Of a DNA stretch of 27,415 bases, positions 16,045-25,744 are shown one piece after another. Below the pieces are notes generated by a model. The model worked only from the letters and a program-made list of their open reading frames with translations, was not told the origin of the DNA and did not search any database. Position numbers and translations under genes: made by a program. Within the stretch, counting starts at the first letter, position 1, and the number at the start of each line of letters is the position of its first letter. This stretch comes from a virus. Its lineage: Duplodnaviria; Heunggongvirae; Uroviricota; Caudoviricetes. The DNA lies in the IMG/VR virus record IMGVR_UViG_2681813230_000002, positions 1-27,415 of that record; one strand, given 5' to 3'.

Positions 16045-16238
16045 TGGGCGGCCTCCTCCATGGCTGGGTCTGCTGGTAAAGTCATGTGCGGCACTTCAAT
16101 CAGTTCTGCCCGAGCATCAGCCGTGTTAAGCGCCATTAATGCGACGATCCGCTTCTGCTCAGCATCCATTCGTAACGCTACTGTCTTGCCGTTCATATTG
16201 AAGAACACCGCAACGTTTTTGATATCTTCGATTTTCAT
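16041..16238 (-). CDS. Hypothetical protein
   Basis: 65 aa from ATG at 16238 (MKIEDIKNV...), ATGA overlap with ren stop; track ORF start at 16295 looks like an extension. Confidence 0.4.
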   Translation of the reverse strand: MKIEDIKNVAVFFNMNGKTVALRMDAEQKRIVALMALNTADARAELIEVPHMTLPADPAMEEAAQ

Positions 16239-18260: not shown

Positions 18261-18806
18261 TCATATAACCCCCAGCATCGATGTAACCATCGTCATCAGC
18301 GGTCCTACCTGCTCCGGCATGAGGCGGAACAGCGACGCTATACCCTCGCTTACCTCTTTGAGCTTCTGATGCTCTGGAGCGTCCAGCAGCACGGCCTGTT
18401 TAGCCTCGGCACACTCTTTCATCGCAGAGGCGATCAGCGACATCGTGTCGTTCTGCGGCGCCAGACGGTTTCGGTACTCCAGCGGCAGGACCGACATGAT
18501 TGCCGGGGCCAGCTGGCGAATGTTGTTGGCGGCGTATTCGGTATCGCCATCAATCCATCGAAACACTTTCTGCATCTGGCGGTGCGAGTCAGTCGGGATA
18601 TCCAGACCGGTTCCGCCGGACGCCCGCCACTCTTCCACGATCAGCGCGGCGACAAATTCACGGCTTCGGCAATCAGCTGCCCAGGCGCGAACAGCAGCGC
18701 GGATCCCATCGATGTTTAACGCCGCGGAATCAGGCTCCCGGCGATTCTGGTAAATCATCGCCGTTGGCGAAAATTTGTTACCTTGTTGATACGCAAGTGA
18801 ATGCAT
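18261..18806 (-). CDS. YdaT-like / CII-position regulatory protein
   Basis: 181 aa; segment FRWIDGDTEYAANNIRQLAPAIMSVLPLEYRNRL resembles recalled Rac YdaT (HRWLKGETKTQREKIQKLIPAILAILPRELRHRL); sits between cro-like gene and O. Confidence 0.55.
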   Translation of the reverse strand: MHSLAYQQGNKFSPTAMIYQNRREPDSAALNIDGIRAAVRAWAADCRSREFVAALIVEEWRASGGTGLDIPTDSHRQMQKVFRWIDGDTEYAANNIRQLAPAIMSVLPLEYRNRLAPQNDTMSLIASAMKECAEAKQAVLLDAPEHQKLKEVSEGIASLFRLMPEQVGPLMTMVTSMLGVI

Positions 18807-18823
18807 TGCTTTCCCTTTCGTGG

Positions 18824-19057
18824 TTAGGCCGCAGTATCACGCGGCGATGCGAATACCAGGCTTTCTTTTAGGACCGGAGCCTGGCGGTGAAAATTCTTCG
18901 TGCCTTTCTCGATAGCAGATGCCATTTCTGGAGATGCCCGGCGATTTCCGTAGGCGATCTGGTCCAGGTAACCTGGCGTCGTGTTAGCCAACTTTGCGAG
19001 CTGCGCCCATTCGTCGGTAGTGGCGGCCTTGCGCCAGCGGTGTAGTTCAGTGCTCAT
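18824..19057 (-). CDS. Cro-like HTH regulator (YdaS-type)
   Basis: 77-aa ORF divergent from cI across an operator-containing intergenic region. Confidence 0.5.
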   Translation of the reverse strand: MSTELHRWRKAATTDEWAQLAKLANTTPGYLDQIAYGNRRASPEMASAIEKGTKNFHRQAPVLKESLVFASPRDTAA

Positions 19058-19173
19058 TGGTGTCTCCGGGTGAGTCGTTTGATTTGGAGTTTAGCGTTAT
19101 GCTAAATACTACGCAAGCATCATTTAGCAATTTGCACATTTATCATTTTGCTAAAAGCAGTAACAATGCAGGT
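19058..19173. promoter_or_regulatory. OR-like operator/promoter region between cro-like gene and cI
   Basis: 17-bp palindrome TTTAGCGTTATGCTAAA (19090-19106) plus two related sites (19123-19139, 19139-19155) sharing half-site TTTAGC/GCTAAA. Confidence 0.55.
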
Positions 19174-19851
19174 ATGGAAAATAAAGAAATCAGAAAAGCC
19201 AACCTGGAAGCGCTGTACGAGAAGCGTCAGCACGAGTCTGGAATGACCAAAGCGCAGTTTGCCGAGCTCATCGAGACAAGTCCGGCTGCGCTTAGCCAGC
19301 TACTGGGACCAAACCCTCATCGCAATATCGGCGATAAGATGGCTCGCAAAATTGAAACTGCGCTTGATCTGCCTTTTGGCTGGATGGATGTTTTACACGC
19401 CAGTGAAGAACCTTCGAACGTTGCATTTCGAGGACTGAACGAGACAAAAGGAAGTTATCCTGTAATCAGCTGGGTAAGCGCGGGGCAATGGATGGAAGCT
19501 GTAGAACCTTATCACCGAAGAGCGATAGATCGCTGGTATGACACGACTGTTGACTGCTCAGAAGATTCATTCTGGCTGGACGTTAAAGGGGATTCTATGA
19601 CCTCTCCGGCTGGACTGAGCATACCCGAGGGAGCAGTGATACTTGTTGATCCTGAAGTCGAGCCGCGCAACGGAAAGCTGGTTGTCGCGAAGCTAGAAGG
19701 CGATAACGAAGCGACCTTTAAGAAGCTTGTAATCGATGCCGGCAGACGCTTCCTAAAGCCCCTTAACCCCGCATATCCAATGCTAGAAATTAATGGAAAC
19801 TGCAAAATCATCGGCGTTGTGGTTGATGCCAAAATACTAAACATCCCATAA
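19174..19851 (+). CDS. cI: CI-type repressor with C-terminal S24 (LexA-like) autopeptidase domain
   Basis: N-terminal HTH region; C-terminal GDSM...FKKL Ser/Lys dyad motifs; start chosen at ATG 19174 (MENKEIRK...), the track ORF begins in the intergenic operator region. Confidence 0.85.
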   Translation: MENKEIRKANLEALYEKRQHESGMTKAQFAELIETSPAALSQLLGPNPHRNIGDKMARKIETALDLPFGWMDVLHASEEPSNVAFRGLNETKGSYPVISWVSAGQWMEAVEPYHRRAIDRWYDTTVDCSEDSFWLDVKGDSMTSPAGLSIPEGAVILVDPEVEPRNGKLVVAKLEGDNEATFKKLVIDAGRRFLKPLNPAYPMLEINGNCKIIGVVVDAKILNIP

Positions 19852-19870
19852 CCTCACGCAAAACCCCTCA

Positions 19871-19896
19871 AGCCCGCCATCGCGCGGGCTTTTTTA
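19871..19896 (+). terminator. Rho-independent terminator after cI
   Basis: AGCCCGC-CATCGC-GCGGGCT 7-bp stem followed by TTTTTT. Confidence 0.65.
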
Positions 19897-19934
19897 CGTC
19901 CCGAATTCCTTCGCTGTAAATTTTTAATCGCTTA

Positions 19935-20011
19935 TTAATCAATACGCTAAATAAAATCATTCAACAATTTAGCATTTTGCTATTGCGCATAATTTAGCAT
20001 CACGCTAAATT
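19935..20011. promoter_or_regulatory. OL-like operator cluster and putative pL promoter
   Basis: TTTAGCATCACGCTAAA (19993-20009) and TTTAGCATTTTGCTATT (19968-19984), plus a weaker site at 19935-19951; same half-sites as OR. Confidence 0.5.
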
Positions 20012-20414
20012 TACCCCATCGAAACGAAACATCGACAGCTGAGCGAAGTTAGCCAGCGGCGGACAGCAAGTCGCCTGCTTTTTAACAACATGCAGATTTA
20101 CAGCGTCAATGACCTGTTAAGACCCCTACACGTAAACGTGCTGTATCACCGGGTGCGATCCGGTCGGTGAGAGAGTATCCCCGCGCGAGAGCGAGAACGG
20201 CGTGAGAACGGGCAACACTGGCAGGGAGTTGGCGCTGACCAATACAGGGAATGTTATGGGATGTGGTGAAGGGTTCATGGACGGGAATATGTCGCACGTA
20301 AAGCGGCGAGGCCCGAGGAGCTATTGCCGAAGATAAGTAGGCCGAATCGGGTCGAAATGGGTCTCCCACCTACCACATCGCCAAAGCATTTCTCCCGCAT
20401 CAGCGGGTAAGTCA

Positions 20415-21083
20415 ATGATTCGTCTTAACAACGAAATTAAAAATCAGCTATGCCATAACCTGCTTCTCGCATCCCCATTGTTTGAGAAAGCGAAAGCTGC
20501 GGTTAATGAGAGGGCGAAAATTGTTGAAGAAATTCGACAGGCATTGCTCAAGCAGGAAAACACTAGCGATGAGCAAATAACTAAGGCTCGGGAAGATTTC
20601 AAAGATAACTCCTTCATCAAGATGCAGGTCGGCGCTAAAACTGCAATTTTAAAGGTCATTATTAATGGTGAGTATCACGAATTAGCCAGGAACGGTTTGG
20701 ATCATCGCTATCGCCACCGTGGAAAACATATTGGTAAGCACGATCTTGAAAGCGACCTGTTCTTCGGAGCTTCCTTCGCGCCTGTAATTGATTCGGGTTT
20801 CGTTCCTGAAAGTTACAGCACGCTGAAGAAAGTTGGAAAATTACACGACCGACTCACTGAATCGACGGTAACCATCAACGTTCTTTACGATGAAGTTGAT
20901 GCCTTCCAATTGCAGGTTAAAGGTGCTCTAACCAAAGTCTCAACTGTTAAAAAACTGGCTGAGATGTGGCCTGAGGCAGTGCCATATTTGCCTGAGGTGG
21001 AACGCCGTGAAGCGACCAGCACCGCACTTGCCATTCCCGTTGAAACGCTAAACGCCCTTTGCGGCATACCAAAGAATGAATGA
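20415..21083 (+). CDS. Hypothetical protein, 222 aa (pL-proximal moron; no family recognised)
   Basis: Clean ORF with lower GC than flanks, preceded by hairpin TCCCGC-ATCA-GCGGGA and a 370-bp ORF-free leader, followed by a strong terminator. Confidence 0.55.
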   Translation: MIRLNNEIKNQLCHNLLLASPLFEKAKAAVNERAKIVEEIRQALLKQENTSDEQITKAREDFKDNSFIKMQVGAKTAILKVIINGEYHELARNGLDHRYRHRGKHIGKHDLESDLFFGASFAPVIDSGFVPESYSTLKKVGKLHDRLTESTVTINVLYDEVDAFQLQVKGALTKVSTVKKLAEMWPEAVPYLPEVERREATSTALAIPVETLNALCGIPKNE

Positions 21084-24283: not shown

Positions 24284-24708
24284 AACGCACACCATTTTAC
24301 CGCAGGCCAGGGCGCACCGGGCAATTCTCCGGCCTTCGTGAGCGCGTTATCTGGATGATTCAGACGCGCGGCCGCCCGGTAACCGGCAGCGAAATCGCTG
24401 AGAAGTTTGGCGTAACGCTCATCGAGTTTAACCGGGTAGCCAACGGTATTACCCGCGGCTCCGGACAGATAGCGCAGATCGTTGAGTCGGAAAAGTGGAT
24501 CAACGGGGACGGCATCTGCGACCGGACTTTCGACCTGGTCACGAAGCCGAAGGTTGTGACGCCGCAGGGCAAATCGCGCCTGTTCACCCGGCGCGCCATT
24601 GAGCAATCGCAGGAAGGTAGACGGCAGGAGTGCATAGCCCGTGCCGCCCGCCGTAGCCGCCTGATTGCTCAGGGCCTCTACATCGACGAAATGGAGTCCA
24701 TCCTATGA
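24280..24708 (+). CDS. Hypothetical protein (possible winged-helix DNA-binding)
   Basis: 142-aa ORF coupled to exo and to downstream small ORF. Confidence 0.5.
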   Translation: MKRTPFYRRPGRTGQFSGLRERVIWMIQTRGRPVTGSEIAEKFGVTLIEFNRVANGITRGSGQIAQIVESEKWINGDGICDRTFDLVTKPKVVTPQGKSRLFTRRAIEQSQEGRRQECIARAARRSRLIAQGLYIDEMESIL

Positions 24709-24863
24709 CTCACGCTCACGACGACATCAGGGTTGGCACGGTGCGCCTTCCCTGGCTCAAAGAGAAAAACGGATGGTTGCTGCCGTGGGGTGAAGTCGTT
24801 ACCAACCCACTGAAGGCGCAACGACTGGCTGAAGAACTTAACGAAAAGCAGGTGGCAGCATGA
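24705..24863 (+). CDS. Small hypothetical protein (52 aa), not in ORF track
   Basis: Hand translation MTHAHDDIRVGTVRLPWLKEKNGWLLPWGEVVTNPLKAQRLAEELNEKQVAA; ATGA overlaps at both ends. Confidence 0.4.
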   Translation: MTHAHDDIRVGTVRLPWLKEKNGWLLPWGEVVTNPLKAQRLAEELNEKQVAA

Positions 24864-25744
24864 GATACGGATCTGTTTGCAGTGGAGCTGCGGCGATGCC
24901 CATAGAAGAACCGGCGCTGCGCAGCTGGCAGCGCCCGTTCCTTAAATGGGCTGGCGGCAAATATTCGCTGCTGCCGGAACTGGATCGCCTGATCCCCGCA
25001 GGTAAACGCCTTATTGAGCCTTTTGTGGGTGGCGGCTCGGTGTTCCTTAACTCAGACAAGCACGAACGCTTCCTTCTGGCTGACGTCAGCGCTGACCTGA
25101 TTAACCTGTATCAGATGCTGGCGGTGGTCCCCGATTCGGTGATCTATGAGGCAATGAAGGCATTCAGGCATCTTAATGATGCCGAAAACTATACGTTAAT
25201 TCGTGAAGCATTCAACGCGCAGCGGCTGGATGCGGTCGAGCGTGCAGCAGCATTCCTTTACCTCAATCGGCACTGCTTTAACGGCCTGATTCGCTATAAC
25301 CTGGACGGTTTTTTTAACGTCGGCTTTGGGAAATATAAAGCGCCATATTTCCCGGAAGAAGAGATCAAGGCATTTAAGCGGAAATCTCACACATGCGTAT
25401 TCATGAATGCAGGCTTCAGGCGCACGCTCGCGCTGGCTGGTGATGGTGACGTCGTTTACTGCGATCCGCCTTATGAGCCGCTGCCCGGCACCGCGGGTTT
25501 CACTAACTACGCGGCTGGTGGGTTCTCATGGGATAGCCAGGTAGAGCTTACGGAAAGCTGTGTGGCAGCCCACCAGCGGGGGGCGAAAGTGGTGATCAGC
25601 AATTCTACCGCTCCGCGCGTAATTGAACTTTACGAACAGCACGGCTTCACGCTGCACCGCGTCAGTGCTCGCCGGGCTATATCCAGCAAAGGCAGTACCC
25701 GCGAAACAGCGAGTGATGTCGTAGCCACTTTGGGAGTGCAGTGA
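24860..25744 (+). CDS. dam: DNA adenine methyltransferase (Dam family, GATC-type)
   Basis: Motifs FLKWAGGKY, EPFVGGGSVFLN, YLNRHCFNGLIRYNL, DPPY match recalled E. coli Dam; start may instead be the internal ATG at 24896. Confidence 0.9.
   Translation: MRYGSVCSGAAAMPIEEPALRSWQRPFLKWAGGKYSLLPELDRLIPAGKRLIEPFVGGGSVFLNSDKHERFLLADVSADLINLYQMLAVVPDSVIYEAMKAFRHLNDAENYTLIREAFNAQRLDAVERAAAFLYLNRHCFNGLIRYNLDGFFNVGFGKYKAPYFPEEEIKAFKRKSHTCVFMNAGFRRTLALAGDGDVVYCDPPYEPLPGTAGFTNYAAGGFSWDSQVELTESCVAAHQRGAKVVISNSTAPRVIELYEQHGFTLHRVSARRAISSKGSTRETASDVVATLGVQ

Follow-up and report, generated by a model that had tools for sequence, protein, structure and literature searches.

A lambdoid prophage with six putative TTTAGC-type operators flanking cI and a predicted immunity specificity of its own

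The analysed stretch of 27,415 bp, referred to here as the window, is a lambdoid prophage in which the repressor gene cI is flanked by six copies of a 17-bp dyad, TTTAGC-N5-GCTAAA. These sites very likely constitute the operators of a lambda-type bistable switch, used by both CI and a Cro-like protein. The components of a lambda-type immunity region are present: a repressor combining a helix-turn-helix (HTH) with an S24 peptidase domain, a divergent Cro-like gene, three sites at the right operator (OR) and a second cluster at the left operator (OL). Judged by sequence comparison, the module appears to represent a new and widespread immunity specificity within the well-understood class of lambdoid switches.

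An exact search of the window for TTTAGCNNNNNGCTAAA returned two matches, at 19090–19106 (TTTAGCGTTATGCTAAA) and 19993–20009 (TTTAGCATCACGCTAAA), which confirms the two perfect palindromes reported in the first-pass annotation. A set of 100 dinucleotide-preserving shuffles gave no match. When up to two mismatches are allowed, the window contains five matches, whereas the shuffles give an expectation of 1.06 and never more than 4. The five matches are confined to the two intergenic stretches that flank cI, and the same short regions hold 8 of the 18 TTTAGC hexamers of the window. At this threshold there are no further copies elsewhere in the window, and a 41.6-kb E. coli genome stretch, consisting of the same prophage and about 14 kb of host genes, yields only the same five sites. 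That the sites are functionless palindromes arising by chance in AT-rich intergenic DNA can practically be discounted. The intergenic regions are indeed AT-rich, and at up to three mismatches the number of matches in the window falls to chance level (13, with 10.7 expected). The perfect copies and the clustering at cI argue against chance, as does the conservation of the sites in register across genera, described below, while the spacers between them drift.

The four degenerate copies that had been proposed in addition to the palindromes could all be located, the one at 19123–19139 through its conservation in register, giving three sites on each flank of cI. On the left-hand side, OR1 (19090–19106, TTTAGC-GTTAT-GCTAAA, perfect) is proximal to the Cro-like gene. 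It lies between the hexamers of the putative rightward promoter (PR) and overlaps the -10 element. In OR2 (19123–19139, TTTAGCAATTTGCACAT; TTTAGC-AATTT-GCACAT, three mismatches), the left arm is strong and the right arm departs from the consensus yet is conserved; the centre lies 43 bp 5' of the cI ATG. OR3 (19139–19155, TTTATC-ATTTT-GCTAAA, one mismatch) is the cI-proximal site and covers the putative -35 element of the promoter for repressor maintenance (PRM). On the right-hand side, OL3 (19935–19951, TTAATC-AATAC-GCTAAA) and OL2 (19968–19984, TTTAGC-ATTTT-GCTATT) have two mismatches each, and the deviant right arm of OL2 enters the TTG of the putative -35 element of the leftward promoter (PL). 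OL1 (19993–20009, TTTAGC-ATCAC-GCTAAA) is perfect and overlaps the putative PL -10. The centre-to-centre spacing is 33 bp for OR1–OR2, 16 bp for OR2–OR3, 33 bp for OL3–OL2 and 25 bp for OL2–OL1, and OR2 and OR3 have 1 bp in common. The site can be extended to 19 bp, A-TTTAGC-N5-GCTAAA-T. The intergenic region between cI and the Cro-like gene contains no other repeated dyad.

The sites were compared with those of relatives comprising loci found via the CI protein alone, the cultured Klebsiella phages KO-TP1 and vB_Kpn_Chronis (CI identity of 95% and 83%, respectively) and E. coli genomes. Ten relatives carry a CI of the same N-terminal class (L002, L003, L006–L011, L027 and L028), including eight genome loci ascertained by protein similarity alone. 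In all ten, OR1 and OR3 keep their distance to the cI ATG (offsets of -84 and -35), and OL1 and OL2 are present in eight. The six sites share a common register in relatives from Escherichia, Enterobacter, Citrobacter, Atlantibacter, Phytobacter and Klebsiella phages. In same-class loci from Enterobacter, Citrobacter, Atlantibacter, Phytobacter, Biostraticola and Pantoea, the left-hand sites occupy identical offsets and the control region is free of indels.

Hardly any change is seen in the arms of the sites; variation is concentrated in the central 5 bp and in the spacers from one site to the next. The centre of OL1 takes at least six forms in the relatives (ATCAC, ATCGC, AACAC, ATTAC, ACTGC and ATTGA) between invariant arms. 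Information content, computed from distinct sequences (39 for OR, 50 for OL), reaches 1.8–2.0 bits in the half-site columns versus 0.85–1.2 bits in the between-site spacers. For OR3 the values are 1.9–2.0 bits in the arms and 1.16 bits in the centre.

OR2 is the weakest member of the set. With three mismatches it is not significant alone, which counts against a set of six, and its case depends on comparative evidence. It is possible, though in our judgement unlikely, that just four or five good sites (OR1, OR3, OL1, OL2 and perhaps OL3) are operators. OR would then have two sites, and 19123–19139, possibly also 19935–19951, would be kept as a promoter element, an UP-like element or the site of another factor. 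The chance-level score of OR2, its conserved non-consensus GCAYAT arm and its 1-bp overlap with OR3 are compatible with such an arrangement, as is the left arm of OL3, which is (A/T)AATC and not TTTAGC. However, the left arm of OR2 keeps an invariant TTTAGC in register, and TTTAGC and GCAYAT are both conserved at the exact position in enterobacterial and Pseudomonas-type relatives. OL3 retains a conserved core, (A/T)AATC...GCTAAAT, between flanks that diverge on both sides. In a group of Pantoea loci, the left arm of OR2 turns into TTTATC together with the other five sites, and GCTAAA of OL3 likewise changes to GATAAA. Finally, the centre of OR2 lies at about -43 from the predicted PRM start, the position used by the CI proteins of lambda and phi80. 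We therefore retain all six sites as putative operators.

The changes in the Pantoea loci (L045 and L046) are part of a broader pattern, in which the motif follows the N-terminal class of the repressor. CI of these loci is 37% identical to that of the window and keeps the MENKEIRK start. All six sites read TTTATC-N5-GATAAA in the same register, and the putative recognition helix is altered from S-PAA-LSQL to N-PAQ-LSQV (S36N and A39Q, the first and fourth residues). These natural specificity variants point to S36 and A39 as candidate recognition residues. Loci in which a similar CI C-terminal domain is joined to another N-terminal domain carry AATAC-N5-GTATT, P22-type, lambda-like or TTTACC/TATAC dyads, the last type in L012–L014 (Pantoea and Ewingella), whose control region is laid out as in the window. 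No TTTAGC dyads were found in any of these loci. The proposal that the sites define the immunity specificity of the prophage is thus supported by a phylogenetic footprint as well as by the association of the motif with one repressor class.

A scan of IMG/VR with the OL2–OL1 composite pattern returned at least 119 contigs, of which about half encode a CI of the window type. The remaining loci, approximately 50, encode "MDIY..." repressors of 240–290 residues, with N-terminal domains 36–47% identical to that of the window. These repressors come from phages of 54–58% G+C, their linkers are longer and different, and the C-terminal domains are different as well. The layout is unchanged: OR1, a 16-bp gap with GCAAG, OR2 ending in GCACAT and an overlapping OR3, with OL2, OL1 and PL likewise maintained. 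The group includes the cultured Pseudomonas phages AUS531phi (L171) and Ostro (L173); the D3-like Pseudomonas phage phi297 does not contain the motif. The modules of KO-TP1, Chronis, 27 E. coli genomes, AUS531phi and Ostro agree in half-sites, site number and register. We tentatively suggest, with somewhat less than even confidence, that the TTTAGC switch could be an old, portable immunity module shared by enteric and Pseudomonas phages, with sister lineages that moved all six sites together. If so, it would offer a natural series for following how six operators and their repressor shift in specificity together, and cross-immunity would be predicted between the enteric and Pseudomonas repressors.

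The Cro-like gene (18824–19057, minus strand) encodes a protein of 77 residues with an HTH containing TTPGYLDQIAYG. It is divergent from cI across the left-hand operator cluster, which forms a short control region, and heads the rightward early operon. The assignment is based on a weak match to HTH_3, a match to PHROG 35 and the name YdaS (Cro superfamily) given to the protein by one source. The gene co-occurs with the operator set, and its helix is nearly invariant in enterobacterial relatives.

This association raises the question whether another regulator binds the palindromes in place of CI, either the Cro/YdaS-like protein only or the YdaT/CII-like protein encoded next to it, with CI acting elsewhere. 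The co-occurrence and the strong conservation of the Cro HTH would agree with such a model, and the assignment of the sites to CI rests on sequence comparison. We nevertheless regard it as highly improbable. The motif follows the CI N-terminal class across loci, and loci with the same CI C-terminal but another N-terminal domain do not contain it. In most Pseudomonas-type loci, no homologue of the Cro-like protein of the window is detected at E ≤ 1e-3, while the N-terminal domain of CI is related and the layout persists. A model in which CI acts elsewhere also has to contend with the lack of any other repeated dyad in the cI–cro intergenic region. Binding of the six sites by both CI and the Cro-like protein thus remains our preferred interpretation.

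cI (19174–19851, plus strand) encodes a protein of 225 residues with an N-terminal HTH (HTH_3, PF01381) and a C-terminal S24 autopeptidase domain (Peptidase_S24, PF00717). Residues 10–218 align with the lambda repressor (PDB 3bdn) with an E value of 2.8e-32. In this alignment, SAGQW is opposite QAGMF at the cleavage site, GDSMT opposite GNSMT at the catalytic Ser and TFKKL opposite TFKKL at the catalytic Lys. The cleavage site corresponds to Ala103–Gly104, and the Ser and Lys residues are found within GDSM and FKK motifs. As judged from this alignment, the protein is a true homologue of lambda CI. The putative recognition helix begins at S36 (S36-PAALSQLL).

The repressor is a domain mosaic, consisting of a P22 C2-like C-terminal part and an N-terminal part of a different class. 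Residues 81–225 are approximately 83% identical to P22 C2, with an overall identity of about 64%. Residues 1–80 belong to another DNA-binding class, common to KO-TP1 and Chronis.

The start of cI at 19174 is supported by the conserved N-terminus MENKEIRK. Annotations of E. coli genomes by the Prokaryotic Genome Annotation Pipeline (PGAP), as well as those of KO-TP1 and Chronis, use an ATG at 19099, which is inside OR1, or a TTG at 19057. We rejected both candidates on the basis of the conserved MENKEIRK and of stop codons in frame 5' of the cI start in the relatives L027, L028 and L151. The public start sites are thus probably wrong, and the present analysis offers a correction. The exact 225-residue protein is missing from the protein collection because gene callers take the longer start. 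Neither the window nor any relative contains a Shine-Dalgarno sequence before the cI ATG, and a conserved nAnnAT pattern is found six bases 5' of it. Based on these two features, the cI mRNA is probably leaderless.

Putative promoters could be placed in register with the operators. PR (19088–19116, minus strand) would consist of a -35 element TTGCGT (19116–19111), a 17-bp spacer that holds most of OR1 and a -10 element TAAACT (19093–19088). The TTG of the -35 and TAAA(C/T)T of the -10 are kept in register in relatives, with TTGATT in Chronis and TTGCTA in the Pseudomonas type. TTGCTA/TATTTA and TAGCAT were considered as PR elements and rejected in favour of TTGCGT-17-TAAACT, which is conserved and resembles PL. 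PL (19983–20011, plus strand) is predicted to be similarly built, with an operator between the hexamers that overlaps the -10. It has TTGCGC (19983–19988) as the -35 element, a 17-bp spacer holding most of OL1 and TAAATT (20006–20011) as the -10 element. The TTG of the -35 is provided by the deviant right arm (GCTATT) of OL2. Among relatives, Chronis has TTGCCA as the -35. The Pseudomonas-type loci have TTGACN; their OL2/-35 junction reads GCTATTGACN, and the -35 is near-consensus. The -10 of PL aligns base for base with the -10 of the annotated phi80 pL.

PRM (19139–19167, plus strand) would combine a weak -35 element, TTTATC, formed by the left arm of OR3, with a 17-bp spacer and the -10 element AACAAT (19162–19167). 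Its nAnnAT pattern is conserved in relatives, and L028, L045 and L151 have a TGn extended -10. TTGCAC (19132–19137) was rejected as the PRM -35, as there is no -10 element 16–18 bp downstream. Transcription from PRM is predicted to start at or beside the A of the cI ATG, placing OR2 at about -43 and OR3 over the -35. The operators would therefore overlap hexamers of all three promoters.

We propose the following mechanism. Dimers of CI and Cro would read the dyad of 17–19 bp through their HTH domains, with a different order of preference. In the lysogen, CI bound at OR1 and at OL1/OL2 would occlude both -10 elements, that of PR and that of PL, and additionally the PL -35. Both operons would be silenced in this way: the rightward one (cro, the YdaT/CII-like gene, O and P) and the leftward one, which extends from an Nmad5-family gene via bet/exo to int. 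OR2 would be the site from which CI could activate PRM, a weak promoter with a probably leaderless transcript. At high CI levels, occupancy of OR3 would cover the PRM -35 and limit CI synthesis. Upon DNA damage, RecA-stimulated self-cleavage at Ala103–Gly104 would lift repression. Cro would then bind, shut off PRM and later turn down PR and PL. The order of occupancy, cooperativity and any looping between OL and OR are predictions of the same kind.

Several observations weigh against this interpretation. A sigma-70 promoter scan of positions 18950–20450 gave no site at threshold, and the putative PR and PL each match just 7 of 12 consensus positions in the window. Simultaneous occupancy of OR2 and OR3 is uncertain, given the shared base pair and the 16 bp between their centres. 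The conservation of OL1 and OL2 in the IMG/VR loci is circular, as these were collected by the OL2–OL1 pattern; OR1–OR3 and OL3, as well as all protein-ascertained loci, are free of this bias. Many loci are close relatives, and their counts are not independent. The recognition helix of Cro is almost unchanged in the Pantoea group with TTTATC arms, so Cro may not read position 5 of the half-site. Furthermore, no binding, footprint or transcript data for the module or its relatives were found in the literature. A full-text search with four of the 17-mers in both orientations retrieved no paper giving these operators. The paper on AUS531phi does not discuss operators or the repressor, and none of the papers on Chronis appears from title and abstract opening to deal with gene regulation. 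The motif treated in the LfsT paper is a different one.

Comparison with known immunity groups, which had been recommended as a check, sets the module apart from the lambda, phi80 and P22/21 types. The similarity to lambda is extensive. The repressors are homologous over the full length and agree at the cleavage site as well as at the catalytic Ser and Lys, and cro is divergent from cI. In both systems, OR and OL each comprise three partial dyads of 17 bp, with the strongest nearest cro and the leftward operon. The cI-proximal site of the window is predicted to overlap PRM, as in lambda. The mRNA from lambda PRM is leaderless, and lambda CI acts on PRM from a position of about -43; the cI start of the window probably lacks a Shine-Dalgarno sequence and a leader as well.

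There are also differences. The lambda half-site is of the TATCAC type, while that of the window is TTTAGC. The lambda-like OR/OL geometry suggested in the first-pass annotation holds for the order and relative strength of the sites and fails for their spacing: lambda spacings are about 20–24 bp, compared to 33, 16, 25 and 33 bp here, with OR2 and OR3 sharing 1 bp. OL is located approximately 0.9 kb from OR, without rexAB-like genes in between. The Cro-like protein is a candidate for an all-helical HTH of the YdaS type, unlike lambda Cro.

In terms of operator design, phi80 is closer. It shares the 7+5+7 (19-bp) arrangement, the OR1–OR2 distance of 33 bp and an OL1–OL2 distance of 23–25 bp. 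In its pL, the -10 overlaps OL1 and the -35 the edge of OL2. The annotated OR2 has its centre about 42 bp 5' of the position at which pRM is expected to start. However, the phi80 operators are AATCAAC...GTTGATT or AATCAAC...GTTAATT, and the phi80 immunity region contains no TTTAGC dyad at up to two mismatches. The cI proteins are not close, OR2 and OR3 of phi80 are 24 bp apart, and phi80 cI has a leader with a Shine-Dalgarno sequence. Both operator sequence and cI place the module outside the phi80 immunity group. The OR2/OR3 overlap of 1 bp is unlike lambda or phi80 and is kept as far as the Pseudomonas-type loci.

The repressors P22 C2 and coliphage 21 CI share the C-terminal oligomerisation and cleavage domain with CI of the window, which is 83% identical to P22 C2 in this part. 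The identity is confined to residues 81–225, and the N-terminal class is different. Loci with a P22-type N-terminal domain carry ATTAAAGAACACTTAAAT-like operators; accordingly, the immunity specificity of the module is predicted to differ, and it does not belong to the P22/phage 21 group.

Downstream of cI, an intrinsic terminator (19870–19897, plus strand) with an 8-bp stem, 6 G-C pairs and a T-run would end the cI transcript before OL3. A G+C-rich hairpin and T-run are kept at this position in relatives despite differing stems. The same scan of 18950–20450 gave one further hairpin with a T-run, which is annotated as nutL boxA in phi80.

The PL leader (20011–20410, plus strand) is 99.8% identical to the 400-bp pL leader of phi80, including nutL boxA (20076–20084) and a boxB-like hairpin (20129–20140) according to the phi80 annotation. 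DNA identity to phi80 begins after OL1, with its first position, 20011, lying exactly at the PL -10. Judged from this alignment, the mosaic joint at the PL -10 is the right edge of the immunity region, of the classical kind. In phi80, gene 40A is located between cI and OL and N follows the leader, while in the window cI is followed by the terminator and OL, and the leader by the Nmad5-family gene (20415–21083), which replaces N exactly at the joint. A tblastn search for a phi80 N homologue across the window gave no match. The leader RNA folds with a z value of -2.35. An Rfam search of the whole window returned nothing at gathering thresholds; just sub-threshold chance matches were seen in 18700–20500, and the leader matches no family.

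On the minus strand, the Cro-like gene is followed by the YdaT/CII-like gene, then O and P. The gene in the cII position (18261–18806) is described as "YdaT_toxin" by Pfam and as "CII-like transcriptional activator" by PHROG. The right operon resembles the ydaS–ydaT arrangement of Rac, joined to a lambda-type cleavable CI. The minus strand continues to capsid/protease, in the order capsid/protease, portal, large terminase, lysozyme, Q, RusA, P, O, YdaT/CII-like and Cro-like along the window. The plus strand contains cI and the early-left operon, which extends to the integrase at the window end.

A search of 5,426 complete E. coli genomes located the immunity core (19058–20011) in 27 of them. 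With these, other enteric genera, the two Klebsiella phages and the uncultured viral contigs, an immunity specificity can be assigned, at the level of prediction, for a whole prophage family. The general picture of lambdoid switches is unchanged. Of more interest are the concerted change in all six sites and the putative recognition helix in sister lineages and the preservation of half-site and layout between enteric and Pseudomonas phages. The natural half-site variants constitute a small, clean test case for protein–DNA recognition, and the ATTTAGC-N5-GCTAAAT operator/repressor pair could be put to use as an orthogonal part or to mark homo-immunity.

From position 16207 onward, the window is 99.7% identical to a prophage located beside kch in E. 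coli PEC422. Compared to this prophage, it carries an insertion of about 1.3 kb (24322–25663) in the early-left region before the integrase.

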